Shown here in pieces: positions 1-38,417 of a DNA stretch of 64,000 bases. Below the pieces are notes generated by a model that was given only the letters and a program-made list of their open reading frames with translations, was not told the DNA's origin and did not search any database. This DNA comes from Pseudomonadota bacterium (GTDB lineage Bacteria > Pseudomonadota > Alphaproteobacteria > MPNO01 > UBA2964), in NCBI GenBank assembly GCA_036336885.1, contig JAYZFG010000007.1, forward strand, positions 51,978-115,977. The letters are read 5' to 3'. Positions within the stretch are counted from its first letter, which is position 1, and the number at the start of each line of letters is the position of its first letter. The position numbers and the translations under genes are program-made.

Positions 1-1130
1 TTTGGAGTAGCCTTATCAACAGTGATAATCGTTACCCGCAAAAGGCCGGTAAGGGGTTCATGGAGCGAAACCTTTTTTACCCCTTTAATTCCAAGTGCAT
101 CTCGTAAATGGGCAAGAAAGAGCGGCTCATAAGCCACCCGCTTGATCACACTTGATTCGGAAGGCGCTGCTTGGCTGATGTAAGAGGTCAAAATAGCATT
201 TTTACGGTGAGTGATCGCCGTAACCTGCATTGGCATGTTAAATTCTTCTAATGCAACGTGACCATGGCTCTCGCCGAACGGGCCCTCTGGTTCAACCATT
301 TCTGTATCAATAACACCCTCTATCACCAATTCAGATTCAGCAGGTACCAGTAAATCAACGGTCCGTGCTTTTACTAAATTGATAGGGGCCCCGGCCAATC
401 CTCCAGCAACACCTACCTCATCCATGTCCAGGGGTAGTTTCTGTGGGCCCATAAATGCGACCGTCGGGGGACAACCTAGGACAATAGCCACGGGCATTTT
501 TTTATCACCTCGTGCCTGGTGCTTTTTGTAATGGGCGTAACCTCCAGCCCCTCCAACTCGGGTGGCCATCCGGACCACCATCCGGTCAGATGCTTTCAAT
601 GCTGCGCGATAGGTCCCCATATTTTGTACACCTGTTTCAGGATCCTGCGTGACCACGTTCGTCGAGGTGAGAGTCGGCGCAGCATCAAATCCCGGCGTTG
701 AGACCGGTATTGGTAAAGAGTCAATTCCGCACCCCTCTCCCAGAAGAGCCTCGTCTTCTATGATGACTTCGTGGCAGGGAGCTTCCTTTATAACAACCGG
801 ATCAATCGGGTTCGCTATTGCGTCATCCCATTTTTTTCCAATTCCCTCCACCGGTACACCCATGCCAATACTGTAAATGTCCTGATTTGCCGCTAGGGCG
901 CCTACAACGATTGGAAGTTCATATTTACGACCCTTGGCGTTGACAACATTCTTGAAAAGGAAAGCCCTACGTTCGCTTTCCTTCAAGCCGCCGACGAACT
1001 GCCAACGGACAAGTGCGTGCATTTCTGAATCTTTATCTACGGGTTCATTTACGGTAACGAGAAGCCCAGCTTTGTCTAAGGCTTCTATGTGATCATGAAG
1101 ATCGGGATAGTCTCGTCTAGGGCTACTCAT
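1..1130 (-). CDS. UbiD-family (prFMN-dependent) aromatic acid decarboxylase, paralog 1. The start codon is at 1130 and the C-terminus runs off the window edge, so it is absent from the ORF track.
   Basis: Manual translation of the reverse strand from the ATG at 1130 gives MSSPRRDYPDLHDHIEALDKAGLLVTVNEP...VTQDPETGVQNMGTYRAAL...GPFGESHGHVALEEF..., the typical UbiD/3-octaprenyl-4-hydroxybenzoate carboxy-lyase fold pattern. The frame stays open to position 1. Confidence 0.8.
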   Translation of the reverse strand, partial: MSSPRRDYPDLHDHIEALDKAGLLVTVNEPVDKDSEMHALVRWQFVGGLKESERRAFLFKNVVNAKGRKYELPIVVGALAANQDIYSIGMGVPVEGIGKKWDDAIANPIDPVVIKEAPCHEVIIEDEALLGEGCGIDSLPIPVSTPGFDAAPTLTSTNVVTQDPETGVQNMGTYRAALKASDRMVVRMATRVGGAGGYAHYKKHQARGDKKMPVAIVLGCPPTVAFMGPQKLPLDMDEVGVAGGLAGAPINLVKARTVDLLVPAESELVIEGVIDTEMVEPEGPFGESHGHVALEEFNMPMQVTAITHRKNAILTSYISQAAPSESSVIKRVAYEPLFLAHLRDALGIKGVKKVSLHEPLTGLLRVTIITVDKATP

Positions 1131-1291
1131 TTTTATAACATCTCTTGTGGTCAATTTTGCTTTGAACCTGCCATACCACACAGTGACGTGTTGACAACCC
1201 CCCAGTCGCTCCATATCCATGGAAGCAATTCTTTAACTACTGAGTAATTCTTTTTATAGGCGCGATATTTGAAGTTAGATTTATAGACACT

Positions 1292-2173
1292 ATGAAAGCC
1301 GCTCCTTTTGATTACATCCGAGTAAATACACTGGATGAAGCCTGTAAGGCTCTCTCTGAATCTGGTGAGGACGCCCGAATTATTGCGGGAGGTCAAACAC
1401 TTGTGCCTTTAATGGCAATGCGTCTCGCCCGCCCGTCACTTTTGATAGACATAAATGACGTCGAAGAACTCTCAGGTATTTCTATTGAAGGCGAACACCT
1501 TGTGATAAAGGCTGGAACAAGACAGGTAAAAGCACTCTCTTCGGAAATTGTCAGAAAAAAAATACCCTTACTTGCTGAAGCGTTATCTCATGTTGGCCAT
1601 ACTCAAACGCGGAACCTCGGAACCGTAGGCGGCAGCTTAGTGAATGCTGACCCCTCCGCTGAGATTCCTTTGATAGCACAAACCCTGGAAGCCACGATCC
1701 TAGTACAAAGCGTGCGCGGCAAAAGAAGTATAGCCGCTAGTGAGTTTTTTGAGGCAGCAATGGTAACCTGCTTAGCCCCAGACGAATGTCTCGTCGAAGT
1801 TTGTTTTCCAATCTGGCCCGAAAAGAGGAATGGTTATGGATTTCACGAAGTGAGTATAAGAGACAGCGACTACGCCCTGGCTGCTGCCGCCGCACAGCTG
1901 ACATTGGACGGTAGTGATAACTGTAAAAAACTATCGTTATCCATTTGCGGAGCGTCGCCCACAGCAATTCGCCTAAAACCAGTGGAGGAATCACTGTTAG
2001 GAAAACCCCCTCTAAATCAGGTTATTGTTGAAGCCTGCGAAATTATAGACGATTTAATAGACCCACAGGCTGACGTGCACGCGGATGCCAACTATCGTGG
2101 CCGGGTTGCAAAGGTAATGGCTCGACGGGCCATTTCCGATGCGCGAGATCGGGCAAAAGGTTTTTTAAAATGA
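1292..2173 (+). CDS. Molybdenum hydroxylase medium (FAD-binding) subunit, CoxM/XdhB-like, module 1
   Basis: 293 aa with the FAD_binding_5 pattern: N-terminal F.Y....LDEA..L..SG.DARIIAGGQTL, then GTVGGSL. It overlaps the next gene by 4 bp. Confidence 0.85.
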   Translation: MKAAPFDYIRVNTLDEACKALSESGEDARIIAGGQTLVPLMAMRLARPSLLIDINDVEELSGISIEGEHLVIKAGTRQVKALSSEIVRKKIPLLAEALSHVGHTQTRNLGTVGGSLVNADPSAEIPLIAQTLEATILVQSVRGKRSIAASEFFEAAMVTCLAPDECLVEVCFPIWPEKRNGYGFHEVSIRDSDYALAAAAAQLTLDGSDNCKKLSLSICGASPTAIRLKPVEESLLGKPPLNQVIVEACEIIDDLIDPQADVHADANYRGRVAKVMARRAISDARDRAKGFLK

Positions 2174-2652
2174 GCGAGTATAAAATTACTTTGGAGTTGA
2201 ACGGTCACGAAGTCTCTGGCAACGCCGAAGCTCGGATAACATTGGTAGATTTTCTCCGAGACAACCTAGATCAGACGGGAACGCACATCGGCTGTGAACA
2301 CGGTGTCTGCGGTGCCTGCTCGGTTATCTTCGATGGCCGCCCAATTCGATCTTGCCTAATTTATGCTGTCATGGCGAATGGTCATAAAATTACGACGGTC
2401 GAGGGTCTTGAAAAGACAAATGGTGCACTTAGTCCATTACAAGATGCATTTTGGGAAAATCACGCGATGCAGTGTGGCTACTGTACCCCGGGGATGCTAA
2501 TAGCTACCCATGCCTTATTGCAGGAAAATCCGGACCCCAGTGACGAAGAAATCCGTGAAGCCATTGGGGGAAATCTCTGCCGATGTACGGGATACCAACA
2601 GATTATAGAGGCTGTCCAATCCGCTGCGAAAAAAATGCGGGAGATACCCTGA
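2170..2652 (+). CDS. Molybdenum hydroxylase small (2Fe-2S) subunit, CoxS/XdhA-like, module 1
   Basis: 160 aa with the two [2Fe-2S] cysteine clusters GCEHGVCGACSV and QCGYCTPGM...CRCTGY. Confidence 0.9.
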   Translation: MSEYKITLELNGHEVSGNAEARITLVDFLRDNLDQTGTHIGCEHGVCGACSVIFDGRPIRSCLIYAVMANGHKITTVEGLEKTNGALSPLQDAFWENHAMQCGYCTPGMLIATHALLQENPDPSDEEIREAIGGNLCRCTGYQQIIEAVQSAAKKMREIP

Positions 2653-5045
2653 TGGCTAGTGCATCAACAAATAGCGGATTTCGGTATATAACAAAAAAGC
2701 GCCGAGTTACCGAAGACCGAAGATTTGTCACTGGGCGTGGTAACTTTGCTGCAGATTATAAATTACCGGGAATGCTACATGTTGCTATGGTTACAAGTCC
2801 CTACGCCTGCGCGGAAATTAAATCTATCGACCCTGATGCTGCATTAGAGATCCCCGGTGTCCGGTACGTCCTGACTGGGGCTGAATTATTTGAAAATATC
2901 AATCCGCTCCTCTCCGGTCTGGATCTCCCCAACGTCAAACGTATACCCCTCGCGCATGAGCGCGCTCGATATGCTGGTGAATGGGTGGCAGCCGTGGTCG
3001 CAGAAACGCGTCATATAGCCGAAGATGCCGCAGAACTGGTTCAAGTGGACTACAACCCCATTGATTTTGTTATTGACCCAGAAGAGGCTATGAAGCCAGG
3101 GGCACCTATGGTTCATCCACAGCATGGAAGCAACATTCTATGTGATAAAACTTGGAATTGGGGTGACGTCGATAAAGATTTTTCTGAGGCATCCAATACT
3201 ATAGCTTTTCGAGTGAAATGGAGTAGAAATTCAACCATTCCGATCGAAACATTTGTGGTTACAGCCAAGTGGGATGAGGGCAAGGAGGTGCTGGACGTTT
3301 GGGCATCCATCCAGATGCCTAAATACCCCGAGCAAATAGCTAGAGCATTAAGCCTGCCCGTTAACGCAATAAACGTACATTTCGATGTTGATGTTGGTGG
3401 CTCATATGGGCTAAAGCGCGGCATAAGGCAAACGGTTATTGTCAGCTATTTAACACGGAAGCTGCGTGCACCAGTTCGTTTTAATGAAGACCGACTGGAA
3501 AATTTATCTGGAGGCGAAATGCACGGCCCAGATCGAATTTTCGACATGGAAGCCGCATACGAGGATGATGGGGTTATTAGTTCAATTCGCATAAAAGCTA
3601 CAGATGATGCAGGGTGTTATCCTGGCCGCGCACCCCTTCAACTGGGAAAACCGGTCAGCGCAATTGTTGGCCCCTATCGTATAAAAAGCGCTTCTTACAA
3701 TGCAATCTCCGTGACAACAAATAAAACCAGTCAAGAAGCCGTTCGCGGATTTGGACAGGCACCGACAAATTTCGCCATCGAAACAATGGTAGACAAGGTC
3801 GCTTTTGAACTTGGACTGGGTCGGGACGAAATTAGGCGCCGAAACCTCATCCGGTCGGATGAGTTTCCTTATCGAATTCCATCAGGTTCTGAATACGACA
3901 GTGGAGATTATCATAATGTCCTCTCAAAGCTGCAGAAAACTGCTGACTGGGATGGACTTATTGCCAAAAGAAATAAATTGCGAAATTCCGGAAAACTGGC
4001 TGGCGTTGGACTTTCGACTTGTCTTGAACCCTCTGGAGGAAACTCATCATTTGAGCCTTTCCTCAACCCAAAAAATGATACAACCACGTGGATGGAATCA
4101 TGCTTGATCAAGGTTGATATGCTGGGGTCAATTACCGCTATGATGGGAACGTCTACCTCTGGTCAGGGCCACGAAACCTTACTCTCAACTGTAATAGGCG
4201 AAGTACTTGAACGCGATCCGGATAGTGTCCGCGCAGTTCACTCCGAATCTCTTGGGGCGTTACCTTCAAATAGCCCGGTTGGCAGCCGAATGGCTATTAT
4301 GCTCGGAGGGGCCGCCGCGGGCGCAGCAGATAAAATTAAGAAACAACTTCTTGAAATTGCGGCCCATAACTTTCAACTGCCTGTTGAACGGTTGGTTTAT
4401 ATTGACGGAGATATTTCAGTCGACGGTGACCCCGAAAAACTAATGACGTGGAACACGCTAGTGGATATAGCCCATCGCAATTATCACAAAATGCCATTGG
4501 GCTCAGAACCAGGGTTACAAGCTCAACACACCTGGGAGGTGCCGACCGGTGGTGCGTTACCAGCAGAAGACGGTACCGTTCAAATGTACCCCTGTTATGC
4601 TTTCGAGGCTCATATTCCCCTGGTTACCATTGATCCGGAAACAGGTCAGGTGGAGATTTTAGACTACTACATGGGTCATGATTGCGGAACCGTCTTAAAC
4701 CCAGATATCGTCCGGGGCATGACATTGGGTGGAATTGCCCACGGTATTGGTGCGGCGCTATATGAAAAATTTGAGTATGATGAGGGGGGGCAACATTTGT
4801 CGGGTTCTTTCATGGATTATCTTCTCCCATCATCTCATGAAATTCCTCATATCGAGATGATCAAACATTACACGCCATCACCGTTGACTACGTTCGGCCA
4901 AAAGGGTTCTGGCGAATCGGGATACCTCGGTACCCCGGCAGCTATTGCTGGCGCTGTCAATGATGCACTATCTCCACTTGGAAAATCTATCGAAACAATT
5001 CCAATGCGGGTTCGCGATATCGAATCCCTTATCAATAGTCAGTAG
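2652..5045 (+). CDS. Molybdenum hydroxylase large (molybdopterin-binding) subunit, xanthine dehydrogenase/aldehyde oxidase family, module 1
   Basis: ~797 aa containing GGSYGLK (equivalent to the GGGFGxK Mo-site region) and a C-terminal GESG motif. The start is set at ATG 2652, which overlaps the upstream TGA. The 2583 start in the ORF track would overlap the 2Fe-2S gene. Confidence 0.85.
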   Translation: MASASTNSGFRYITKKRRVTEDRRFVTGRGNFAADYKLPGMLHVAMVTSPYACAEIKSIDPDAALEIPGVRYVLTGAELFENINPLLSGLDLPNVKRIPLAHERARYAGEWVAAVVAETRHIAEDAAELVQVDYNPIDFVIDPEEAMKPGAPMVHPQHGSNILCDKTWNWGDVDKDFSEASNTIAFRVKWSRNSTIPIETFVVTAKWDEGKEVLDVWASIQMPKYPEQIARALSLPVNAINVHFDVDVGGSYGLKRGIRQTVIVSYLTRKLRAPVRFNEDRLENLSGGEMHGPDRIFDMEAAYEDDGVISSIRIKATDDAGCYPGRAPLQLGKPVSAIVGPYRIKSASYNAISVTTNKTSQEAVRGFGQAPTNFAIETMVDKVAFELGLGRDEIRRRNLIRSDEFPYRIPSGSEYDSGDYHNVLSKLQKTADWDGLIAKRNKLRNSGKLAGVGLSTCLEPSGGNSSFEPFLNPKNDTTTWMESCLIKVDMLGSITAMMGTSTSGQGHETLLSTVIGEVLERDPDSVRAVHSESLGALPSNSPVGSRMAIMLGGAAAGAADKIKKQLLEIAAHNFQLPVERLVYIDGDISVDGDPEKLMTWNTLVDIAHRNYHKMPLGSEPGLQAQHTWEVPTGGALPAEDGTVQMYPCYAFEAHIPLVTIDPETGQVEILDYYMGHDCGTVLNPDIVRGMTLGGIAHGIGAALYEKFEYDEGGQHLSGSFMDYLLPSSHEIPHIEMIKHYTPSPLTTFGQKGSGESGYLGTPAAIAGAVNDALSPLGKSIETIPMRVRDIESLINSQ

Positions 5046-5078
5046 GAACAGACTGAATTTTAAAACTCGAGGGAACAC

Positions 5079-5801
5079 ATGGGTAATGAACTTATAATTA
5101 AACAAAATGGACGGATTTTAGAAGCAACCTTCAACCGAGAGGATAATTCCTGCTCTGATGCCATGGCGGCTGAACTCTCGGCTTCCATGCTGTCAGCGCA
5201 TGAGACATCCGATATGGTTTTACTAAGGAGTACTGGGCCAGACTTTTGTACAGGTCGGGCCAGAAATGCTGACGCTGGAAAACCCGATCCAGAAGCATAC
5301 AAACGTAGACCGGAATACGACTCTATTTTCAACTGCTATAAAGCTATCCGAAATTCGCAAGTTCCGATCGTCGGTGTCATTGAAGGTCGCTGCATGGGAT
5401 TTGGAACAGCTGTGGCTTCGCTTTGTGACGTTTCTTTCGCCAGCAGCACCGCAACTTTCAATATTCCGGAAATAGAACACAACGTCATGCCTACTATGGT
5501 TATGTCGGCGCTATACGACCGCATAAATAGGAATGCAATTTTATGGATGACTTACACCGCACAATTTATCGATGCTGAACGGGCATTATCGTATGGCCTC
5601 GTCAGCCACGTGGTCAATGCCGATAGAGTAAATACCGAAGTCGACGAATTTTGCAAAATTCTTTTAAGCCGGCCCCGCCCGGCGATCTTGGGTCTCAAAG
5701 AATACCTCCACGTTGCTCCTAGGATGGACGAACTGGGCGCTATCGACTATGCGCGTGCCCTGCACTCCATGGTTAATACGGCGTCCGATATGAAAAAATA
5801 A
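5079..5801 (+). CDS. Enoyl-CoA hydratase/isomerase (crotonase-fold) family protein
   Basis: 240 aa with the crotonase oxyanion-hole-like segments TGPDFCTGRARN and GRCMGFGTAVASLCDV. There is an RBS-like GAGGGAA upstream. Confidence 0.7.
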   Translation: MGNELIIKQNGRILEATFNREDNSCSDAMAAELSASMLSAHETSDMVLLRSTGPDFCTGRARNADAGKPDPEAYKRRPEYDSIFNCYKAIRNSQVPIVGVIEGRCMGFGTAVASLCDVSFASSTATFNIPEIEHNVMPTMVMSALYDRINRNAILWMTYTAQFIDAERALSYGLVSHVVNADRVNTEVDEFCKILLSRPRPAILGLKEYLHVAPRMDELGAIDYARALHSMVNTASDMKK

Positions 5802-5809
5802 GTGATGTC

Positions 5810-6805
5810 ATGATAATCGATACCCATGCCCACTACCTTCCACAAACGATGCTGGAAAACCTGAATAATCATCGGTCTATGTTCCCGAATATTGATTGTA
5901 TGAATGAGGACGGCATATGGAAACTGGGCTTTGCTGGAGGCTCTCTTACGCGCCCAATACTCCCGGGGCTACGTCAGGCGGAATCCAGGCTTCAATGGAT
6001 GAACGAACAAAAAATTGATGTAATGGTTTGCGGCGGTTGGCTCGATAGTTTTGGATACGAGATCCCTGATGATGAAGGGAAGCGTTGGAGCCAATTTATA
6101 AATGATCACCTCTTGCAAGCCTGCTCTGAAACCGAGCGGTTTGCTCCTCTCTGCAGTGTTCCCCTGCAAAATGGTAAGATGGCTGCCGAGATTTTAGAGC
6201 AAGCGATCGACACAGGATTTCATGGGGTAATGATTGGGACCCAACCGAAAGGTGGGGAGGGTAATTTAGATGATCCAATCCTTGACCCGTTTTGGGAGTT
6301 AGCGTCAGATCGGAAAGCAACCATTTATTTACATCCAATGTTTGGATGCGGCGATCCTCGTCTTCTCGATTACGGTCTGGTAAATACAGTTGGGCGCGGC
6401 CTGGACACAATTTCCGCCATGTCTCGACTAATATTTGCCGGACACTTGAAAAAATATCCGGGCATGAATTTTGTCCTTAGTCACGGTGGTGGCGGCCTAC
6501 CCTTTTTACTCGGTCGCATGCAGATGAATCACGACCAAAACCCTAAATTGGGAAACCCCCGGGAAAGCTTGGAGACATGCTATTACGATACAGTTGTCCA
6601 TGATGTGAAAACGTTAGAATTCGTATGCCGAATGTTTGGGCCTGATAGGGTAATGATGGGATCAGATTATCCCTTCAGCTTTGGTGACCTCGAACCATGC
6701 AAAATAATCGAAGAGAGCAAACTTGCGGATAAAGAAAAGCAAGATATTTTGGGTAACGTGGCAAAACGCGTGTTCCATATAGAAAATTGTAGTTGTAATC
6801 ATTAA
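5810..6805 (+). CDS. Amidohydrolase-2 family (ACMSD/LigW/gamma-resorcylate-type) metal-dependent decarboxylase or hydratase
   Basis: 331 aa with N-terminal MIIDTHAHYLP (HxH metal ligands), an internal LSHGGGGLP and a C-terminal MMGSDYPF (the Asp ligand). These are hallmarks of PF04909. Confidence 0.8.
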   Translation: MIIDTHAHYLPQTMLENLNNHRSMFPNIDCMNEDGIWKLGFAGGSLTRPILPGLRQAESRLQWMNEQKIDVMVCGGWLDSFGYEIPDDEGKRWSQFINDHLLQACSETERFAPLCSVPLQNGKMAAEILEQAIDTGFHGVMIGTQPKGGEGNLDDPILDPFWELASDRKATIYLHPMFGCGDPRLLDYGLVNTVGRGLDTISAMSRLIFAGHLKKYPGMNFVLSHGGGGLPFLLGRMQMNHDQNPKLGNPRESLETCYYDTVVHDVKTLEFVCRMFGPDRVMMGSDYPFSFGDLEPCKIIEESKLADKEKQDILGNVAKRVFHIENCSCNH

Positions 6806-6865
6806 TAACAATAAGATTACCCAACAAATTATAGAAATTGGTGATCGCAAGGGAACCTTGGAAAA

Positions 6866-8056
6866 GTGAAAATGAGCCGATTAGACCACTGTTACAATAT
6901 TGCAGACTTGAGAAATGCAGCCAAGAAACGCCTTCCACGGGGTGTATTTGATTATATTGACAAGGGAACCGAGGACATGATGTCTCTCGGTAATAACCGC
7001 AAGGCAATAACTGATATAAAATTACTGAACAAAGTCATTACGGATATTTCTGATGTAAAGCTAGATTCAAATATTTTTGATCGTGCCGCCGCAATGCCAC
7101 TTGCCATTGCACCAACCGGCACGGCGGGTTTGGCTTGGTATGAGGGTGAGTTTGAACTCGCAAAAGCAGCAGCGAAGACAGGTGTTCCCTTTACGCTGGC
7201 TACCGGCTCAAACACTCCGATGGAGAAACTTGCGAATGAGGCGGGCGGTCGACTGTGGATGCAACTATACATGTGGAAAGAAAAACACTACTCGGATGAC
7301 CTGGTCCGAAAAGCGGCACGAAACGGTTTTGAAGCATTACTATGGACGGTGGATATAGGACATGGTGCCAACCGGGAACATAACCTTCGTAACGGATTTG
7401 CTACGCCTTATGTTTTAAACACAAAGTCCGTCATTGACATGCTTCGTCACCCCGCATGGCTATCCACTGTTATGGGCCGATACTTCATAAATGGGGGTAT
7501 GCCGCGTCATGTTAACTATCCTGAAGGATATCAGATGCCAATTACTGGCAATGTGTCAAAAATGGAAGATAAAAAACCGACTACCAAACGGGCGGATAAG
7601 TTGTCTTGGGATGACGTTGACCGGTTAAGAGACATATTCCCAGGAAAGCTCTTAATAAAAGGTATTATGCGGCCAGATGATGCTGCTGAAGCTATTGAAC
7701 ATGGGGTGGATGGGATTGTTATATCAAATCATGGCGGACGTAATATGGACAGTGCGCCCGCTCCGATCCAAGTTCTTCCGGACATTGTAAAAGCTGTTGA
7801 AGGAAAAATGACAATTATTGTTGATAGCGGCGTGCGCCGTGGCAGTGACGTCGTAAAATATTTGGCGCTGGGCGCTGACGCAGTCCTTGCAGGACGTGCA
7901 ACACTCTATGGAACGGCAGCGGGTGGCGAAGCTGGGGCAATAAAAGCCATAAATCTCCTGAAAGATGAGATGAAAAGAACTATGGCCTATATTGGCACGC
8001 AACGCGTTACCGACATCAGTAGCGACGCTATTTGGAAGAATTCTTTACCCTCTTAG
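6866..8056 (+). CDS. FMN-dependent alpha-hydroxy acid dehydrogenase/oxidase (L-lactate, glycolate or mandelate dehydrogenase family)
   Basis: 396 aa with the VISNHGGRNMD active-site motif, DSGVRRGSDVVKYLALGA, and an inserted loop typical of the membrane-associated LldD/MdlB type. Confidence 0.85.
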   Translation: MKMSRLDHCYNIADLRNAAKKRLPRGVFDYIDKGTEDMMSLGNNRKAITDIKLLNKVITDISDVKLDSNIFDRAAAMPLAIAPTGTAGLAWYEGEFELAKAAAKTGVPFTLATGSNTPMEKLANEAGGRLWMQLYMWKEKHYSDDLVRKAARNGFEALLWTVDIGHGANREHNLRNGFATPYVLNTKSVIDMLRHPAWLSTVMGRYFINGGMPRHVNYPEGYQMPITGNVSKMEDKKPTTKRADKLSWDDVDRLRDIFPGKLLIKGIMRPDDAAEAIEHGVDGIVISNHGGRNMDSAPAPIQVLPDIVKAVEGKMTIIVDSGVRRGSDVVKYLALGADAVLAGRATLYGTAAGGEAGAIKAINLLKDEMKRTMAYIGTQRVTDISSDAIWKNSLPS

Positions 8057-9453
8057 TCTAAAATCTCTTCCAGGTTAATACGATCCCACACTTCCTTTGG
8101 TGGCTTAATTGGTTCCTCAAAATCAAGAGTTGCAGGGCGAGTTGCATCTATAATAACCTTAGTGTTCATAGGACCAGATTCTGTGCGCACCTCCCCGTAC
8201 GCTGCCGGGTTTAAGTGAGATCCCATTGCGTTTGGTATTATTGCAAGATCTCTATCTGCTTCAAAAGTGGTTCCAATCGCCCATAACACGCGCTCCTCGT
8301 TATAGATATCGATATCATCGTCAACCACAATTGCAATTTTAATATTTGGATTCGCCGTCAATGCCGCCATGCCCGCTGACTTTCCCTCACCAGGCACGCG
8401 TTTTTTTATGGATACATACACGGTAAAGCGACAAGAACCCGATACCGGCATATAAACACCGGTAACAGTTGGGCAAAGATGTTTAACGCTATCGTAAACG
8501 GTACTTTCGAGACCTAGTGCGCCAGCCAAGTTATGCTCTTGATGAGCAGGATCGAGATCGTGAAATATTGCATCTTCTCTCATAGTGACTGCCGTAACCT
8601 TCATCATCCCAACTGGGTCCTTAGCCGGTCCATAATACCCCGTGAATTCTGCGAAGGGACCGTCTTTGGTCTCATGGGCGGGGTCTAAATAGCCTTCAAT
8701 GGCGATCTCCGCAAATGCTGGAACTGGAATATCAACAGTTTCGCCGTCGACAACCTCTAGGGGCTCCCCAAGCAATCCTCCCATTACCTCCAACTCACTT
8801 AAATCCATTGGCCCTTCACATAATGTACCAATAAGAGCAGCCGGGTGATGACCCAGAAAGAGGACCGCCTCCATCCGTTTGTTCAGTTCTTTGTAGCGCC
8901 GGTAAATATAGCCCGCGTGATGAGCTGGATTAAACATGCATCCAAGCAAATTTTTACCCTGCAGCTCGTGTCGATACATTCCTGCATTAAGTACTCCTGT
9001 ATCAGGATCTTTAACTACCAAGACACCAACGGTAATATACTTACCAGAATCATTTTCAGCGTGATGAACGATAGGGAGTTTTGACAAGTCAACATCATCA
9101 TTCATAAAGACGCGTTGTTTTACAGGGGCTTGGGACCTCTCAACTGATTTAGTGGGAAGGGGTTTTGCTTCTCTTTCAATGAAACGTTGAAGGATTGAAC
9201 TCTTCGGTTCAAGAGGATCAACGCCTAAAGCGAGACCAAGTAAATCGTAACTCCCAAAAACATTGGTCACCAATGGATGCTCGGAGCCATTTACCTTTTC
9301 ACAACGAATTACCGGATAGCGCCCCTCTGCGGCCAATTTTTGTTGTATTACACAAGGCTCAAAAATAGGATCAACCGGCTTTGAGACATTAGCGTAAAAG
9401 GCGGAACCTAATTGCCTCGCTTCACCGATAAATGATCTTAGATCTTTATTCAT
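8053..9453 (-). CDS. UbiD-family decarboxylase, paralog 2
   Basis: 466 aa: ...VVKDPDTGVLNAGMYRHEL...KDGPFAEFTGYYG...IAIVVDDDIDIYNEERVLWAI... It is convergent with the upstream plus-strand operon, with a 4-bp overlap. Confidence 0.85.
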   Translation of the reverse strand: MNKDLRSFIGEARQLGSAFYANVSKPVDPIFEPCVIQQKLAAEGRYPVIRCEKVNGSEHPLVTNVFGSYDLLGLALGVDPLEPKSSILQRFIEREAKPLPTKSVERSQAPVKQRVFMNDDVDLSKLPIVHHAENDSGKYITVGVLVVKDPDTGVLNAGMYRHELQGKNLLGCMFNPAHHAGYIYRRYKELNKRMEAVLFLGHHPAALIGTLCEGPMDLSELEVMGGLLGEPLEVVDGETVDIPVPAFAEIAIEGYLDPAHETKDGPFAEFTGYYGPAKDPVGMMKVTAVTMREDAIFHDLDPAHQEHNLAGALGLESTVYDSVKHLCPTVTGVYMPVSGSCRFTVYVSIKKRVPGEGKSAGMAALTANPNIKIAIVVDDDIDIYNEERVLWAIGTTFEADRDLAIIPNAMGSHLNPAAYGEVRTESGPMNTKVIIDATRPATLDFEEPIKPPKEVWDRINLEEILD

Positions 9454-9550
9454 TTTAATATTCCGAGCATTTATAAAGTTATTTCGGTAGATACTTTACT
9501 ACATAACGCGATTATTAACATTTTGATACAGTTTTAGACTATCGAAAGAA

Positions 9551-10345
9551 TCAATTTTGACGACGCGCCACCCCCGGCATTGCAGTAAAGAAAAACAAGA
9601 GCATGGACACCACTACAATAGATGGCCCTGCGGGGGTATCAATATAGGCGGAGGCTGCAAGGCCACCTAACACCGAGATTGCACCCAAAATTATCGCATA
9701 AAATGCCATCTGCTCAGGCGTTCGGGAAAACCTCCTAGCGGTTGCCGGCGGAATGATTAGTAAGGAGATGATTAGCAATATTCCAACAATTTTCATTGAA
9801 ACCGCTATTACAAATGCGATCATCAACATAAAAATCAATCTGACCCTGCCTAATGGAACACCATCAACAAGCGCCAGACCCTCATGTACCGTCATTGACA
9901 ATAGCCCACGCCAAATCAGAGCTAACAGTATGAGGCATACCACAGCACCACCATAAACCCAGATTAAGTCAAAGGGTGAGACCGACAGAATATCACCAAA
10001 CAAATACCCCATGAGATCAATTCGCACATTATCCAAGAAGGCAACTACGACCAATCCTAGCGCCAACATTCCATGGGCTAGAATTCCAAGTATTGTATCT
10101 GATGCAAATCTTTGGTCACCCTCCATGGCGTAGAGGGCAGTTGATATAGCTACACAGATTGCTATCACACCCAGTAACGGATTTAAATCAAGTATAAGGC
10201 CGAGGGCTACTCCTAAAAGTGCAGAGTGGGAGAGTGTAGCACCAAAATAGGACATGCGACGCCAAACCATGAAACAACCCAAAGGACCAGCGATGATCGT
10301 AACACCCACGCCCGCCGCAAATGCTAATAGAAGAAAATCATCCAT
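9551..10345 (-). CDS. znuB: Zinc/manganese ABC transporter permease ZnuB
   Basis: Polytopic membrane protein of the ABC-3 family. The start is reassigned to the internal Met (MDDFLLLAFAAG) so it does not overlap the znuC stop. Confidence 0.8.
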   Translation of the reverse strand: MDDFLLLAFAAGVGVTIIAGPLGCFMVWRRMSYFGATLSHSALLGVALGLILDLNPLLGVIAICVAISTALYAMEGDQRFASDTILGILAHGMLALGLVVVAFLDNVRIDLMGYLFGDILSVSPFDLIWVYGGAVVCLILLALIWRGLLSMTVHEGLALVDGVPLGRVRLIFMLMIAFVIAVSMKIVGILLIISLLIIPPATARRFSRTPEQMAFYAIILGAISVLGGLAASAYIDTPAGPSIVVVSMLLFFFTAMPGVARRQN

Positions 10346-11129
10346 TGCCGGCCTCTTGCCGTTGATTCCCAGTCTCTTTAATAGGAGTTCCAGCGAGATC
10401 ATGCCGATGATCATGATGATGGGTATAGAAAGCTAATGCCGAATCTACAGTATCTGACCCAAACATTTCCAGATAAGCTGGGTTGCGGCTAACTGTATCG
10501 GGTTTTCCTTCACAGCAGATATGATTATTAAGGCAAATAACATGGTCGGTAGCGGCCATCACGAGATGTAAATTGTGGGAAACCAACAAAATACCGCATT
10601 TACGACGATCACGAATAGCCCTAATCAATTCATAAAGCTCACCCTGCCCCGCAAAATCAATACCAGCAGTAGGCTCATCTAAAACCAGCAATTCTGGTTC
10701 ACGTAATAAAGCCCTAGCTAACAACACACGACGTAATTCACCCCCTGAAAGTCCTTGCACAGGAATATCAAGCGAAGTTGAAAAACCGACTTCCCTAAGA
10801 GTAGTCTCCAAATTTGGCAGTGAATTACGAGCCCCGAGAAAAAGGAAACGTCTTACATCTAGAGGCAAAGTGGGGTCTATTTCGAGTTGTTGTGGGACAT
10901 AGCCTATGACGAGCCCTGGTTTTCGTTCTACTCGTCCACTATCACATTTAATCAATTTAAGAAGGGCGTTAATCAATGTTGATTTACCGGCACCATTTGG
11001 CCCCACCAACGTAACAATTTCACCAGAATTTACACTTAGGCTAATATTATCGACAACCGGTTTCCCCCCCCTAGAAACTGTCAGGTCAGTCGCCCGAATA
11101 AGCGCTCCGTCATCCAAATCTTCAATCAT
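10338..11129 (-). CDS. znuC: Zinc ABC transporter ATP-binding protein ZnuC with a His-rich C-terminal tail
   Basis: Walker A GPNGAGKST, ABC signature LSGGELRRVLLARAL, Walker B LLVLDEP, and the tail ...HHHDHRHDLAG. The start is probably the internal Met at 11129, just after the zur stop. Confidence 0.85.
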   Translation of the reverse strand: MIEDLDDGALIRATDLTVSRGGKPVVDNISLSVNSGEIVTLVGPNGAGKSTLINALLKLIKCDSGRVERKPGLVIGYVPQQLEIDPTLPLDVRRFLFLGARNSLPNLETTLREVGFSTSLDIPVQGLSGGELRRVLLARALLREPELLVLDEPTAGIDFAGQGELYELIRAIRDRRKCGILLVSHNLHLVMAATDHVICLNNHICCEGKPDTVSRNPAYLEMFGSDTVDSALAFYTHHHDHRHDLAGTPIKETGNQRQEAGNG

Positions 11130-11649
11130 TGCGAGATCCAGACGAACAATCTGCACACCTACCAATTACCTCCACAGTCTGCTGGCCAACGGTAAATCCC
11201 ATGGCATTGGCTCGGCTTGCTACAGCCCGAGCAACGGCTTCATCATCTAATTCTGCAACAGTTCTACAATCCTGACATATTAGGAACTGTCCTCCATGAT
11301 GGCGTGCAGGGTCACCGCAACCAATATAAGCATTTAGAGACTCGATGCGATGTATCAGACCGTGCTCCATTAAAAAGTCTAGGGCTCTATATACCGTAGG
11401 TGGCGCCGCCTTACGGTGGCTATCCTTCAACCGGTCAAGCAACTCATACGCGCCAATTGGACCATGACTTGACCACACCAATTCAAATACTTTGCGACGT
11501 AACGGGGTAAAGGTCAGACTTTCGTTCTCGCAGCAAAGTTCCGCGGCAGCCATAGCCTCCGAAATACATTTTTTATGATTATGGATTTGTGGCTGAAACG
11601 GCGCAATGACCGAGGTATTTTTATCCAATTTCTTCATAAGAATCTCCAA
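11122..11649 (-). CDS. zur: Fur-family zinc uptake regulator (Zur)
   Basis: 175 aa with the Fur-family DNA-binding helix and the metal-site motifs HHGGQFLICQDC and CADC. It sits directly upstream of znuCB. Confidence 0.8.
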   Translation of the reverse strand: MEILMKKLDKNTSVIAPFQPQIHNHKKCISEAMAAAELCCENESLTFTPLRRKVFELVWSSHGPIGAYELLDRLKDSHRKAAPPTVYRALDFLMEHGLIHRIESLNAYIGCGDPARHHGGQFLICQDCRTVAELDDEAVARAVASRANAMGFTVGQQTVEVIGRCADCSSGSRND

Positions 11650-11656
11650 GGATGCT

Positions 11657-11678
11657 TAATGTTATACTATATCATATA
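11657..11678. promoter_or_regulatory. Candidate Zur box, an imperfect palindrome immediately upstream of zur-znuCB
   Basis: TTAATGTTATACTATATCATAT contains ATGTTATA and TATATCAT half-sites resembling Fur/Zur-type AT-rich palindromes. It lies 8-30 bp upstream of the zur start. Confidence 0.3.
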
Positions 11679-11782
11679 TCCCTCTGTTCCACGCAAGTTT
11701 TGTTAGTCGAAAACAATACTTGCACAACCCGATTCGATTGGTCTAACAAGATAGACATATAAAATGTTGCCTTACGAGGCGA

Positions 11783-12493
11783 ATGAAACAAATAAAAATG
11801 AAAACATTCGATATTCCCCGAAAGCTTGTCGCTGAATTTCTCGGTACCGCTTTTCTGCTCGCCGCCGTTATTGGCTCTGGGATCATGGCCGAGACACTAT
11901 CCCCAACAAATAATGGCGTGGCCCTATTAGCCAATATGGCCGCAACCGGTGCTATATTGACAGTATTAATTATAGTATTTGGTCCCATTTCAGGCGCACA
12001 CTTTAACCCTGCAGTTACCCTTGCCTTTGTTATAAGACGTGAAATTACACCGGGCCAGGCACTAAGCTACATTTGTATTCAAATTATCGGTGCACTGACG
12101 GGCGCCGTTATAGCCCACATTATGTTCAGCGCCCCGCTCCTAGAAGCTTCGAACAACATTCGTACTGGGCCCGCACAATGGATTGCAGAAATTGTTGCCA
12201 CATTTGGGCTTATTATGACAATTTTCGGCAGTATCCGCTTTCGTGCATCCGCAGTCCCTTACGCGGTGGGTCTGTATATTTCGGCGGCCTACTGGTTTAC
12301 GTCTTCAACTTCGTTTGCAAACCCAGCAGTTACAATGGCGCGAAGCCTTACCGATAGTTTTTCAGGGATCCGACCGGAGGACATGCCAAGCTTTATTGCG
12401 GCACAGCTGATCGGTGCGGTTCTTGCCACGATAATAGTAAATTGGCTATTTAGTCCTCAGCACAAGGATAATAACTATGAAAAAAAGCTTTAG
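11783..12493 (+). CDS. aqpZ: Aquaporin Z (MIP family water channel)
   Basis: 236 aa with two NPA boxes (SGAHFNPAVTLA and ANPAVTMA) across six transmembrane segments. Confidence 0.85.
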   Translation: MKQIKMKTFDIPRKLVAEFLGTAFLLAAVIGSGIMAETLSPTNNGVALLANMAATGAILTVLIIVFGPISGAHFNPAVTLAFVIRREITPGQALSYICIQIIGALTGAVIAHIMFSAPLLEASNNIRTGPAQWIAEIVATFGLIMTIFGSIRFRASAVPYAVGLYISAAYWFTSSTSFANPAVTMARSLTDSFSGIRPEDMPSFIAAQLIGAVLATIIVNWLFSPQHKDNNYEKKL

Positions 12494-12547
12494 GTTTCTT
12501 ATTAAACTCCATGCCCCATTTATCTGAGATTAAGTAATTCTATCGCG

Positions 12548-13429
12548 ATGCGATTTATGCAATTTTTTATTTCGATTTTATCGGGTGTCCTGGCCCTTAG
12601 CCTAGTATCGTTTTGTTCGTTGAACGCCCAAGAAATCATTGAGTTTAAAAGCCTAAACGACTCAAGAACAAAGATCCGTGGCGAATTATTCAAGCCTAAT
12701 CTTTACAAAAGACCGGCGGCTATAGTGATGATGCACGGTTGTTCCGGCCTTTACACAAAGTCCGGGAAAATACGCACCAACTCTGCTGCGTGGATCAAAC
12801 GTTTCGTGGCTTGGGGTTACGTTGTGCTGGCTGTAGACGGGTTTACGCCCCGCGGGTTTCGGACGATGTGTAAAAGGAGAAAAAGGCCCCTCCATTCTAT
12901 CGATGATCGCCCTTTTGATGCATATGGAGGGCTGGCTTGGCTCAAGAAACAGCCCTTTCTGAATAAGGACCAAATTTTTTTAGTAGGTTGGTCAAATGGC
13001 GCAATGTCTACTTTATCAGGTCTTCGAAGGAATAAAGCTGAGTACTTTGGTGATGGCCACCGGTTCAAAGCCGCAGTGGCGTTTTACCCTGGTTGCATTA
13101 CTCTAAAAAAAAGGGTCCGAAATAGGTATAGGCCTTACGCACCTTTACTTGTATTTATAGGATTAGCCGATAATTGGACGTGGCCGAAACCCTGTATAGA
13201 TATGATTGAGCAGGCCTCTAAAGATGGTTTTCCAGCAAATTATATTGCCTTTAGAGGTGCCTATCACGCATTTGATCACCCTAATTTACCAATCAAGACA
13301 ATAATTAGTCGAAATGCCAAATGGAAAAAAGACAAAGAAAGATATGTTACCGTTGGCTCAAATGGTCCCGCTCGTGAAGCGGCAATCAAATTCATACGCA
13401 TTTGGCTGGACAAGCAGGGCACAAAATAA
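12548..13429 (+). CDS. Secreted alpha/beta hydrolase, dienelactone-hydrolase-like
   Basis: Signal peptide MRFMQFFISILSGVLALSLVSF...A, then MMHGCSGLY and the nucleophile-elbow-like LVGWSNGAM. Confidence 0.65.
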   Translation: MRFMQFFISILSGVLALSLVSFCSLNAQEIIEFKSLNDSRTKIRGELFKPNLYKRPAAIVMMHGCSGLYTKSGKIRTNSAAWIKRFVAWGYVVLAVDGFTPRGFRTMCKRRKRPLHSIDDRPFDAYGGLAWLKKQPFLNKDQIFLVGWSNGAMSTLSGLRRNKAEYFGDGHRFKAAVAFYPGCITLKKRVRNRYRPYAPLLVFIGLADNWTWPKPCIDMIEQASKDGFPANYIAFRGAYHAFDHPNLPIKTIISRNAKWKKDKERYVTVGSNGPAREAAIKFIRIWLDKQGTK

Positions 13430-13450
13430 ATTTTTCCTAAAGGTTTTTGT

Positions 13451-15040
13451 TTATATGGTGGGCGGCGGCTCAGCAGCAAACTCTGTGCCAGAAAGACAAA
13501 GACGACCTTCGGGATCTTGCCAGAGTTTATTGGCAGCATGGAGCTCTCCAATCGCTCGCGTGACTGCCTTGAAGCCCTCGCCTTCAAAAGTTTTGGCAAG
13601 CTCTTCAAAATATAATGGCTTCTTCTCTATCAAAAATTCAATGCGCACAGCAAGCTCAGTGATATCTACATCAACTGATTGCTTGGCCGTTTCTTCTCCT
13701 GCACCCAAATAATCTTTCAAATCCACCTGGTTTGCATAAGCGTATTCAATGCGCTCAAAACGCTCACGCGGCAGGTCGTCAGGAATTGTTGCATCAATAC
13801 CGCATTTGGTTGTTATAGGTGTCCGACCAGGGGTAGCCTTTAGGCTGGGATCCAACGGTTTGGCGCGAAGATCGGGGATTATAACAATGTCACGGTCCGC
13901 TTGAACCCGCGTCGCGATTGCCCACTCAACATCAGTTCCGTTAAAAACATCTATATCTTCATCAACCACGACAACATGCTTTATATCCGAGGCAACGAGT
14001 GCCGCCATGATTGCGTGCTTAGCATCACCGGGCCGCTTTCGAATAGAAACAATAGCATGGAAATAGCAGGATCCGCCGGGGGTAATATTCACATTAACCA
14101 GGTCAAGGTTTGCGGTTTTAAAAGCACGCCTTACCGCGGCCTCGCGGTTGGGCGCCCCAGGCAATATCACCTCCCAAGGCATATGAAGAGCATAATACAT
14201 TGCATCTTTACGCATAGAAATTGCTTTAATTTTCACCTGCGGGTTCCAGTGAAGTCCTCCCATAAGACGGGTAAACTCACCAAAACGCCCCTCAGGTTTG
14301 GTCCAACCAGTCGGCAGAATTTCGGCTTCTAAAACAATTTCAGCATCCGCAATACACGGAACATCAACTGTCTCCCCGGGAGTAAGTTGGATAGGACCTC
14401 CCAGCATACCACCGGCTATAGCCAATTCGCTCTGGCCCATTGGCGCCCTATATGTTGCACCTACATTGATCGCCAAATGAGTACCTATATTAATTGAAAT
14501 TGGTAGAGATTCATTGCGGCGGAAAGCTTCCAAAGCCAGCAATTGAAGATCATTAGGTGTAACGATATCAATGCCTGTTAGGTTTTTTTCGCGTAATAAG
14601 AACCTATAAATTCCAGCGTTAAGAGAACCACTACTACTCTTAGCAATTGTTACCCCTGCGGTTATCATGGGGCCGCCATCATGAATTGAGAAAAGCGGTA
14701 CGGGCAATTCAAATAAGTCAACATCATCATCAACCATTAGAATTTGGCGAACGGGTCCACCGTTAATTAATTCGGGCTCTATGGGACTTGATAGACCTTC
14801 ATCAAGGCGTCTATAGACATCTTCGTATAGACAATCGAATGCCGCTCCAATGCGTTCTCTAGAATTAGCAACACCCGAGATAACCGGCATCGCGTAATCA
14901 TTAACATTGTGAAAGACTAGAGCTTTCTCCGATTTGTCGACTAACGTAGCAATGTGGCGAATATCGACAGGTTTGGTGATATCCTCAACATGTCCGTCAC
15001 GGCGCAAATTTTCGACTATATCACGAAAACTGGTTGTCAT
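13451..15040 (-). CDS. UbiD-family decarboxylase, paralog 3, with a ~75 aa C-terminal extension
   Basis: 529 aa. The core resembles paralog 2 (LNAGIYR, GRFGEFT, VVVVDEDIDVFNG), followed by the extra tail SVDVDITELAVRIEFLIEKKPLYFEELAKTFEGEGFKAVTRAIGELHAANKLWQDPEGRLCLSG. Confidence 0.85.
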   Translation of the reverse strand: MTTSFRDIVENLRRDGHVEDITKPVDIRHIATLVDKSEKALVFHNVNDYAMPVISGVANSRERIGAAFDCLYEDVYRRLDEGLSSPIEPELINGGPVRQILMVDDDVDLFELPVPLFSIHDGGPMITAGVTIAKSSSGSLNAGIYRFLLREKNLTGIDIVTPNDLQLLALEAFRRNESLPISINIGTHLAINVGATYRAPMGQSELAIAGGMLGGPIQLTPGETVDVPCIADAEIVLEAEILPTGWTKPEGRFGEFTRLMGGLHWNPQVKIKAISMRKDAMYYALHMPWEVILPGAPNREAAVRRAFKTANLDLVNVNITPGGSCYFHAIVSIRKRPGDAKHAIMAALVASDIKHVVVVDEDIDVFNGTDVEWAIATRVQADRDIVIIPDLRAKPLDPSLKATPGRTPITTKCGIDATIPDDLPRERFERIEYAYANQVDLKDYLGAGEETAKQSVDVDITELAVRIEFLIEKKPLYFEELAKTFEGEGFKAVTRAIGELHAANKLWQDPEGRLCLSGTEFAAEPPPTI

Positions 15041-15118
15041 ATCGAGCTCCTGAACTAATGATACATATTAACATATCCGCCATTTCAATAGTCGTGCAAA
15101 TCTAACCAGAGATTTATA

Positions 15119-16009
15119 TTGATTGCTCACCAAATAATGACCAACTTTAAACAAGATAAAATTGATGTCCTCGACCATGTCGCTGTTATTGTCCAGGACC
15201 TTTCTATGTCAAAAGGTTCCTTTAAGCGCCTTGGATTTTGTTTAACACCTGTATCACAACATTCTGGTGCGCTTACCGCTGGTGGGGAAGTGGTCCAGTG
15301 GGGATGCGCAAATACCTGTGTCATGCTGGAGCAAGGTTACCTTGAGCTTATGGGGATTATAGACGAAAACCTCTACGACAATAAAATTCCAGAGTTCTTA
15401 TCACGGTACGAAGGCATTCATATTATGGCCTTCGGTTGTCAGAATCCAAACTCTGTATCCAATCGACTAAGTTCCTCGGGTTTTAAAAGCAACGGGATTT
15501 ATAGCCTGTCCAGGGCACTCGATACCCCAAAAGGTCAAAGGACAGCCAAGTTTGAGCTAGTGAGACTGCCGCCCGGTGATATGCCTGAAGGGCGTGTGTT
15601 GGCTATCAAACACCTCACAAAAGATTATTTATGGCAGGATCGATACATGGAACATCCTAACGGTGCTTTAGCTCTTGAGGAATTGGTTGTTTCAGTCGAA
15701 GACCTGCCAACAGTTGCTAAGCGTTACACGCGTTATTTTGGAATAAAGCCAGTTAATAAAGGAGGAAGTTGGCAGTTCAAATTACGGGAGGGTACTTTCG
15801 TGTTAACCACGAGCAGGCTGTTATTTGAAAATTATGAAATTAACGCGCCTTCAAACCCCTTTGCGGCTATTATCAAGATTAAATCTCGAAACTTGTTTAA
15901 AACTCGTAAAATTTTGAACCAGAATAGTGTCAAATTCAAAGAAATAAAGAATGGGATCCAGGTTCCAGGTTCCGAAGCTTCTGGGGCAACCGTAATCTTT
16001 ACTGAGTAG
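15119..16009 (+). CDS. Two-domain VOC (glyoxalase/dioxygenase fold) family protein
   Basis: 296 aa with VLDHVAVIVQDL (VOC N-terminal beta-alpha-beta-beta-beta) and a second repeat. It overlaps the downstream FAD enzyme by 4 bp. Confidence 0.55.
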   Translation: MIAHQIMTNFKQDKIDVLDHVAVIVQDLSMSKGSFKRLGFCLTPVSQHSGALTAGGEVVQWGCANTCVMLEQGYLELMGIIDENLYDNKIPEFLSRYEGIHIMAFGCQNPNSVSNRLSSSGFKSNGIYSLSRALDTPKGQRTAKFELVRLPPGDMPEGRVLAIKHLTKDYLWQDRYMEHPNGALALEELVVSVEDLPTVAKRYTRYFGIKPVNKGGSWQFKLREGTFVLTTSRLLFENYEINAPSNPFAAIIKIKSRNLFKTRKILNQNSVKFKEIKNGIQVPGSEASGATVIFTE

Positions 16010-38362: not shown

Positions 38363-38417
38363 TGTTTGGAAGCCATTCCTAAATTTTTCCAAATCAAAAG
38401 CGAAAGGATATCAGAAT

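Follow-up and report, generated by a model that had tools for sequence, protein, structure and literature searches.

A conserved, uncharacterised gene module of a UbiD decarboxylase, a molybdenum hydroxylase and an ACMSD-like amidohydrolase in marine Alphaproteobacteria, with a carboxylated N-heteroaromatic compound as candidate substrate

The left end of a 64,000-nucleotide stretch of an alphaproteobacterial contig (JAYZFG010000007.1, positions 51,978 to 115,977; the window) places two genes for UbiD-family decarboxylases on either side of genes for a three-subunit molybdenum (Mo) hydroxylase, a crotonase-fold protein, an amidohydrolase-2 (AH2) and an FMN-dependent dehydrogenase, which raises the question of whether these genes belong to one catabolic pathway and, if so, what compound it degrades. 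Our analysis indicates that there is a real, conserved and uncharacterised module at this locus, and that it is smaller on the right and larger on the left than had been proposed. On balance, we take the window to contain the right-hand portion of a conserved module for the catabolism of a carboxylated compound, most likely an N-heteroaromatic one.

An open reading frame (ORF) map of the window, with translation of its left edge, gave eight genes in positions 1-9453, and protein families were assigned by Pfam and NCBIfam profile searches of the window ORFs:

1..1130, minus strand: UbiD-1 (Pfam UbiD/UbiD_N), with its ATG at 1130, truncated after 376 codons by the start of the window.
1131..1291: divergent intergenic region with a promoter-like element, seen in an alignment of 17 orthologous UbiD-1/CoxM intergenic regions.
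1292..2173, plus strand: FAD-binding (medium, CoxM-like) subunit of the Mo hydroxylase (Pfam FAD_binding_5 and CO_deh_flav_C).
2170..2652, plus strand: [2Fe-2S] (small, CoxS-like) subunit (Pfam Fer2_2/Fer2), overlapping the FAD gene by 4 nucleotides.
2652..5045, plus strand: molybdopterin-binding (large, CoxL-like) subunit of 797 aa (Pfam Ald_Xan_dh_C/MoCoBD_1/2), overlapping the FeS gene by 1 nucleotide.
5079..5801, plus strand: crotonase-fold protein of 240 aa (Pfam ECH_1), 33 nucleotides after CoxL.
5810..6805, plus strand: predicted ACMSD-subfamily amidohydrolase-2 (AH2) of 331 aa (Pfam Amidohydro_2), 8 nucleotides after the crotonase gene.
6866..8056, plus strand: FMN-dependent 2-hydroxyacid dehydrogenase of the LldD/mandelate-dehydrogenase type (Pfam FMN_dh), about 60 nucleotides after AH2.
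8053..9453, minus strand: UbiD-2, HmfF-like, 466 aa (Pfam UbiD), the gene ends overlapping those of the FMN dehydrogenase gene by 4 nucleotides.

The original prediction, made from the sequence of this stretch, described a 7-gene plus-strand operon bracketed by two UbiD genes. The map holds only six plus-strand genes, between 1292 and 8056; UbiD-1 is divergent from them and UbiD-2 is convergent with the FMN dehydrogenase gene, and because both UbiD genes lie on the minus strand neither can share a transcript with the six. The domain assignments made at that time were correct for all genes, including the UbiD domains at both ends, and the tight packing that had been described holds as well, with the two overlaps followed by the three short gaps listed above. 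None of the eight genes reached an NCBIfam equivalog cut-off, and Rfam gave no RNA family match in positions 1-16000. Two start codons leave a choice: the longest ORF of the Mo subunit begins at 2583, within the FeS gene, but the ATG at 2652, which overlaps the FeS stop codon, is favoured because of this stop/start overlap and because an identical metagenome contig (L001) is called with 797 aa; the FMN dehydrogenase starts at 6866 (GTG) or 6872 (ATG).

The extent of the module was apparent from its conservation. A genome scan with an AH2 alignment yielded 80 loci, on which the cluster proteins were mapped by tblastn; the close clade comprises loci with an AH2 identity of 64% or more. The AH2 homologues come from metagenome-assembled genomes (MAGs) of marine Rhodospirillaceae and Alphaproteobacteria, and two short metagenome contigs, likewise marine, encode the identical AH2 protein. 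Of 66 loci with enough flank, 60 have CoxM-CoxS-CoxL immediately before AH2, and a UbiD-1 orthologue (52-94% identity) lies within 10 kb of AH2 in 24 of 57, divergent in 17 of them and co-directional, immediately upstream of CoxM, in the other 7. Divided by clade, the counts are:

UbiD-1 orthologue within 10 kb: close 14/14 (all divergent); distant 10/43 (3 divergent, 7 co-directional).
DctP: close 14/14; distant 0/43.
Crotonase: close 17/19; distant 2/59.
FMN dehydrogenase: close 9/15; distant 0/41.
cog0402-type amidohydrolase after AH2: close 7/15; distant 0/41.
UbiD-2: close 7/12; distant 0/37.

The genes upstream of the co-directional operons are mutually unrelated, which argues that UbiD-1-CoxM-CoxS-CoxL-AH2 is a self-contained five-gene unit. 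The core module also occurs in a Burkholderiales MAG (L094), with a TctC binding protein replacing the TRAP system and with identities of 76% for UbiD, 63% for CoxL and 48% for AH2. In L076 and L079 (1-10975), the operon is headed by UbiX and reads UbiX-CoxM-CoxS-CoxL-AH2. On their opposite strand, these two loci encode an additional CoxL/M/S set together with a different UbiD that shares 33-34% identity with UbiD-2. Clustering of neighbouring gene families found no further gene common to the close and distant clades.

Scattering of orthologues in relatives had been named as evidence against the proposed operon, and here the outcome was divided: the core (UbiD-1, CoxMSL and AH2) stays together, whereas the FMN dehydrogenase and UbiD-2 do not, being present in part of the close clade and in none of the distant loci. 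These two genes are best regarded as lineage-specific neighbours, probably accessory and outside the conserved core, and the crotonase is a divergent, marine-clade addition. A further gene of the close clade, the cog0402-type amidohydrolase, encodes 510 aa and lies between AH2 and the FMN dehydrogenase gene at 11068-12600 in L003 and 11107-12639 in L016; among characterised proteins, those closest to it are MTA/SAH deaminase, 8-oxoguanine deaminase, atrazine chlorohydrolase and guanine deaminase. It is absent from the window and from the relatives L007 and L017.

On the left, the module runs beyond the window. Locus L007, which is 93% nucleotide-identical to window positions 1-13196 and extends leftward, shows UbiD-1 at its full length of 551 aa, followed on the same strand by dctP-dctQ-dctM, which encode a TRAP transporter. 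Loci L003, L004 and L005 likewise have TRAP genes after UbiD-1, often with two dctP copies. The earlier observation that no regulator or transporter is encoded in the operon is thus accurate inside 1131-9453, but the absence of a transporter is an artefact of the window edge, as the continuation in L007 indicates. The only PDB relative of the TRAP binding protein is 4mnc/4mni (E 2e-37), a benzoylformate complex, and the relationship is too distant for the ligand to be transferred.

Between the two divergent units, TTGACA at 1191-1196 is followed by a 17-nucleotide spacer and TATCCA at 1214-1219, and within this element TTGACAACCCC (1191-1201) and CATA (1212-1215) are invariant across the 17 orthologous UbiD-1/CoxM loci despite diverged flanks. 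Positions 1191-1219 read as a promoter-like element for the plus-strand genes, with a putative -35 box and a weak -10 box; a generic promoter scan missed it because the -10 hexamer is weak. In the closest clade, a further conserved block, GCCATACCA(T/C)A, lies just upstream of TTGACAACCCC, and together the two blocks suggest a promoter and possibly an operator. We found no inverted repeat in the divergent intergenic region.

The predicted chemistry of the core enzymes points to heteroaromatic acids. The PDB neighbours of the large Mo subunit (CoxL1) are a form-II-type CoxL, quinoline 2-oxidoreductase and 6-hydroxypseudooxynicotine dehydrogenase, and judged by these relatives CoxL1 groups with N-heterocycle hydroxylases. 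A true aerobic CO dehydrogenase was ruled out: the active-site loop reads AVRGFGQ, compared with AYRCSFR in CO dehydrogenase, and the NCBIfam CO dehydrogenase models, which have cut-offs of 950 and 991, gave scores of 442 and 424 bits. CoxL1 contains the Glu motif GSGESG. All NCBIfam matches of the FAD subunit likewise fell under their equivalog cut-offs.

AH2 is predicted to be a metal-dependent, non-oxidative decarboxylase-type enzyme of the ACMSD subfamily. Aligned to human ACMSD, it keeps the complete site of metal ligands, catalytic His and two substrate-binding Arg, with H6, H8, R48, H175, H225, R236 and D286 matching H6, H8, R47, H174, H224, R235 and D291 of the human enzyme. A structure model built from 37 sequences, with a predicted local distance difference test score (pLDDT) of 91.8, gave ACMSD as its best Foldseek match (template modelling score 0.87, 26-27% identity), followed by iso-orotate decarboxylase (IDCase), LigW and dihydroxybenzoate decarboxylases, so that the original ACMSD/LigW-type call for 5810-6805 is borne out. 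Members of this subfamily (IDCase, LigW, gamma-resorcylate decarboxylase, PicC) share with AH2 the fold, the metal ligands, the catalytic His and both Arg. AH2 is nevertheless not ACMSD itself, since its identity to ACMSD is low (26-30%), NCBIfam gave no match for it, and no kynurenine or 2-nitrobenzoate pathway genes (3-hydroxyanthranilate dioxygenase, aminomuconate semialdehyde dehydrogenase) were found nearby; unlike ACMSD, it sits within a Mo hydroxylase operon. No plasmid homologue of AH2 above 33% identity was found.

UbiD-1 belongs to the family of decarboxylases that use prenylated FMN (prFMN), in which N-x-G-x-Y-R, a metal-site Glu and the catalytic Glu of GPFGE have roles established by work on Fdc1. 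It keeps N-x-G-x-Y-R, E238 and GPFGE, positions that do not vary among the four UbiD paralogues of the window, and it scores under the cut-off of the general UbiD subfamily model TIGR00148. The UbiD-1 clade is very large, with more than 8000 candidate homologues and about 75% identity between marine Alphaproteobacteria and Burkholderiales.

The crotonase matched only generic enoyl-CoA hydratases in the PDB (E about 1e-14). Canonical enoyl-CoA hydratases have two catalytic Glu, E144 and E164 in the rat enzyme; the window protein has GFGTAVA in place of GGGCELA, while IPEIEH keeps the second Glu, and both segments are conserved in 15 orthologues. The first canonical Glu thus appears to be replaced by Ala, according to a by-eye alignment to the rat enzyme. 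The FMN dehydrogenase scored under the cut-off of the NCBIfam LldD subfamily. UbiD-2 is closest to the HmfF structures 6h6v/6h6x (E 7e-80, 37.5% identity to HmfF of P. thermopropionicum), and its H307 aligns with HmfF H296, the histidine reported to be key to furan specificity (PMC7976604).

From these parts a mechanism can be proposed, each step of which derives from family chemistry. The module would consist of two divergent units, UbiD-1 followed by TRAP leftward, and CoxMSL, crotonase and AH2 rightward from the element at about 1191-1219. A binding-protein-dependent carboxylate transporter (TRAP here, TctC in Burkholderiales) would import the acid, and the Mo hydroxylase would introduce oxygen from water at a ring carbon that is electron-poor and adjacent to nitrogen. 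AH2 would then remove the carboxyl group beside the new oxo/enol function, using its two carboxylate-holding Arg; alternatively, it might open or rearrange the ring, as DHLI does in lumazine degradation. UbiD-1 would remove a second (hetero)aromatic carboxyl with prFMN supplied by a UbiX encoded elsewhere, and the product would presumably enter a general pathway that is also encoded elsewhere.

The two decarboxylases, the two Arg of AH2 and uptake by TRAP or TctC suggest that the substrate is a di-acid, or an acid that gains a carboxyl by ring contraction, and the cog0402 deaminase in relatives favours an amino-substituted family of N-heterocycles. Pyridine dicarboxylates and pteridine carboxylates are candidate substrates, between which the present data do not discriminate. 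A narrower version of this reading, which we offer tentatively and would not call likely, is that of an undescribed and widespread pathway in which a conserved UbiD clade, a dedicated Mo hydroxylase and an ACMSD-like decarboxylase strip two carboxyls from an N-heteroaromatic di-acid taken up by TRAP/TTT systems. Quinolinate, or the folate photoproduct pterin-6-carboxylate, would be a candidate in that case, and the substrate specificity would be new for all three enzymes.

Several points weigh against the reading of the locus as a module for N-heteroaromatic acids. A UbiD-1 orthologue is missing within 10 kb in 33 of 57 AH2 loci, which suggests that the CoxMSL-AH2 pair also works without UbiD-1 or with a distant copy, and the neighbours in the distant clade differ, including a PaaK-like ligase, an M20 peptidase and TauD. 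Mo hydroxylases of the CoxL family also oxidise aldehydes and furoyl-CoA, a non-nitrogen heterocycle. The crotonase is a hint of CoA chemistry, but neither a ligase nor a transferase accompanies it. No UbiX is encoded in the 64-kb window, as judged by Pfam searches of its ORFs and by tblastn with three UbiX proteins, which matched only in L076 and L079. Finally, the order of the steps is a guess, and the transcription units were deduced only from spacing and conservation, generic promoter and terminator scans having performed at chance level.

Closest to what was originally proposed is that all eight genes serve one pathway, with three decarboxylase chemistries and two UbiD enzymes acting on one substrate family. 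We consider this unlikely. The nearest relatives, L007 and L017, show the same arrangement, as does L016 with the cog0402 gene inserted between AH2 and the FMN dehydrogenase gene; no terminator-like site was seen in the short gap of about 60 nucleotides between AH2 and the FMN dehydrogenase gene, and UbiD-2 and the FMN dehydrogenase are confined to the clade that also has the core. Both UbiD genes, however, lie on the opposite strand, and seven loci (L005, L008, L018, L019, L022, L023 and L025) keep the core in the absence of the FMN dehydrogenase or UbiD-2. In four others (L003, L009, L012 and L013), the FMN dehydrogenase gene and UbiD-2 are about 5 kb or more apart; in L003 this interval contains genes for a chemoreceptor, cupredoxins and a MauG-like protein. 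Across relatives, the two genes lie up to about 5-6 kb from the core. UbiD-2 homologues found elsewhere also keep other company. In L096 (8001-11171) and L097 (3687-9422), homologues with 69-73% identity have as neighbours either PyrK-like and dihydroorotate-dehydrogenase-like (PyrD-like) genes or a Rieske dioxygenase gene together with one for a cog0402 amidohydrolase.

The resemblance to the furoate and picolinate systems that had been pointed out is upheld, but a nearer analogue exists in the lumazine/pterin cluster I of Cupriavidus sp. LA-1 (Doi, Maeda & Takaya 2025; PMC12391406). In this strain, the three-subunit Mo dehydrogenase LuDH hydroxylates lumazine twice, the amidohydrolase-2 isomerase DHLI contracts the ring to xanthine carboxylate, the divergent UbiD enzyme XCDC decarboxylates xanthine carboxylate to xanthine with UbiX, and a pterin deaminase feeds pterins into the lumazine pathway (PMC12391406). 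Compared by description and at the level of enzyme families, this cluster is the closest published analogue of the marine core: both combine genes for a Mo hydroxylase, an amidohydrolase-2 and a prFMN/UbiD decarboxylase, and the target is an N-heteroaromatic compound, as proposed here.

That the module is an outright orthologue of the LA-1 cluster (LuDH, DHLI, XCDC and pterin deaminase), ending in xanthine, is nonetheless distinctly improbable. The same triad of enzyme families is present, and the cog0402-type protein, a candidate counterpart of the amidohydrolase-superfamily deaminase in the LA-1 cluster, follows AH2 in close relatives only (7/15); AH2 His6 and His8 correspond to positions named for the DHLI beta subunit, and UbiD-1, below the TIGR00148 cut-off, is a divergent branch of the UbiD family, as XCDC is described to be. 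DHLI, however, is built from the products of two paralogous genes as a 108-kDa alpha2beta2 enzyme, with His6, His8 and the metal-ligand Asp235 in its beta subunit, and the beta subunit is always accompanied by the gene for a GTP-binding chaperone of the LA1_0143 type (PMC12391406). The marine loci have a single 331-aa AH2, with ligands H6, H8, H175 and D286; neither a second amidohydrolase-2 copy nor, among the Pfam matches of ORFs, a GTP-binding chaperone domain of that type was found in the window, L003-L005 or L094. The LA-1 cluster also contains UbiX, absent from the window, and relies on purine/pyrimidine permeases instead of TRAP or TctC, and the crotonase has no counterpart there.

An hmf-type furoate/2,5-furandicarboxylate pathway, with UbiD acting on 2,5-furandicarboxylate, the Mo enzyme on furoyl-CoA and the crotonase hydrolysing 2-oxoglutaroyl-CoA, would account for UbiD-2, with its HmfF-like sequence and retained furan-specificity His (PMC7976604), and JGI labels the relatives of UbiD-2 as 2,5-furandicarboxylate decarboxylase. 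The hmf pathway (HmfABC furoyl-CoA dehydrogenase, HmfD, HmfE and HmfF/HmfG) does combine a Mo hydroxylase, a crotonase and a UbiD decarboxylase, and the pairing of Mo hydroxylase and crotonase here resembles HmfABC with HmfE. The canonical gene order, however, is hmfABCDE, with an identity threshold of 45% for HmfA (PMC8091172), and differs from the order M-S-L-ECH (medium, small and large subunits, crotonase) of the window. The pathway needs a CoA ligase and UbiX (HmfG), both absent here: no gene with an AMP-binding domain, as expected for the furoyl-CoA synthetase HmfD, was found in window positions 1-16 kb. AH2 would have no role, and the HmfF-like gene is UbiD-2, which lies outside the conserved core and none of whose homologues were found in hmf clusters. 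We regard this explanation as very improbable. The contexts of the homologues suggest that in marine bacteria this HmfF-like clade has heteroaromatic acids of other kinds as substrates, and they leave the label of 2,5-furandicarboxylate decarboxylase unsupported.

The pic pathway of Alcaligenes faecalis JQ135 has, like the module, a three-component Mo hydroxylase, which in that pathway acts on a pyridine carboxylate, and an amidohydrolase-2 enzyme, the decarboxylase PicC. The pic cluster has no UbiD enzyme, and neither the 6-hydroxypicolinate monooxygenase PicB, the dioxygenase PicD nor PicE/F/G was found beside the Mo hydroxylase and AH2, where the neighbours are unrelated by Pfam. The statement that no described pathway combines all of these enzymes with two UbiD enzymes agrees with our literature search, which found no paper on the combination in the library covered; neither UbiD together with pyridine dicarboxylates or 6-hydroxyquinolinate nor the combination of TRAP, xanthine dehydrogenase and amidohydrolase brought up anything relevant.

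Least credible is the absence of any pathway, with a form-II CoxL-type oxidoreductase lying by chance beside unrelated decarboxylase genes in a UbiD-rich genome: four UbiD genes within 35 kb and the many AH2 loci without UbiD-1 would fit it, but the UbiD-1/CoxMSL/AH2 linkage survives rearrangement and changes of transporter type and bacterial class, and with UbiX built into the CoxMSL-AH2 operon of L076 and L079, synteny already disfavours it.

If the locus is read as a module for carboxylated N-heteroaromatic compounds, its core (UbiD-1, Mo hydroxylase, ACMSD-like enzyme and carboxylate transporter), present in many marine alphaproteobacterial MAGs and one Burkholderiales MAG, would be a second example of the Mo hydroxylase/amidohydrolase-2/prFMN decarboxylase logic first described for lumazine in 2025. 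Knowing the substrate would allow functions to be assigned to thousands of genes that currently carry the labels "CO dehydrogenase", "ubiquinone decarboxylase" or "ACMSD", and would add a route for the turnover of nitrogen-ring carboxylates in seawater. For annotation, it is also relevant that the relatives of UbiD-2 carry their automatic furandicarboxylate label outside any hmf context.

Pairings of UbiD with Mo hydroxylases extend to cultivable bacteria. A Neorhizobium plasmid (L087, 6320-17471) and S. meliloti pA (L088) encode a UbiD-1 homologue of 56% identity. Divergent from it runs an operon for a different Mo hydroxylase (30% identity), which also includes CoxG and an ABC binding protein; after these come a second Mo subunit, GntR and UbiX. 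No amidohydrolase-2 was found on these rhizobial megaplasmids. The UbiD/Mo-hydroxylase pairing is therefore a recurrent theme, and the UbiD-1 clade could be studied in these carriers. A query of PLSDB plasmids with UbiD-1 gave no cluster like that of LA-1 among the matches examined: the Paracoccus (including P. kondratievae) and Ruegeria matches were ubiquinone UbiD/UbiX loci with U32-peptidase and SCP2-domain genes, of the O2-independent UbiT/U/V type, and a Paraburkholderia match comprised UbiX, UbiD, a porin and an NMT1-type ABC system.

Directly upstream of UbiD-2, on the minus strand at 9551-11649, lie zur-znuC-znuB, encoding a zinc uptake regulator and ABC transporter; in L005 the same genes come after AH2 at a distance of about 1.5 kb, with three unrelated ORFs in between. 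Next to an amidohydrolase that probably depends on Zn, zinc-uptake genes bring to mind the metallochaperone need of DHLI, although this may be coincidence.

The other two of the four UbiD paralogues lie farther to the right. UbiD-3 (13451-15040, minus strand), a 529-aa protein with a C-terminal extension, is divergent from a Glyoxalase_3 gene (15119-16009), which is followed by FAD_binding_2 (16013-17425) and an AbrB-family membrane protein (17475-18548). UbiD-4 belongs to a second module with a layout like that of the first, although its paralogues (UbiD-4 and the FAD, FeS and Mo subunits) are only about 30-49% identical to those of the first module:

32115-32966: EamA transporter gene, behind UbiD-4.
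32994-34451, minus strand: UbiD-4.
34617-35486, 35483-35971 and 35975-38362, divergent from UbiD-4: second FAD, FeS and Mo subunit set, about 30% identical to the first set.
38277-38981: DUF427 gene, following the set.

Between this second module and housekeeping genes, positions 38999-39559 hold a stand-alone HNH endonuclease gene.

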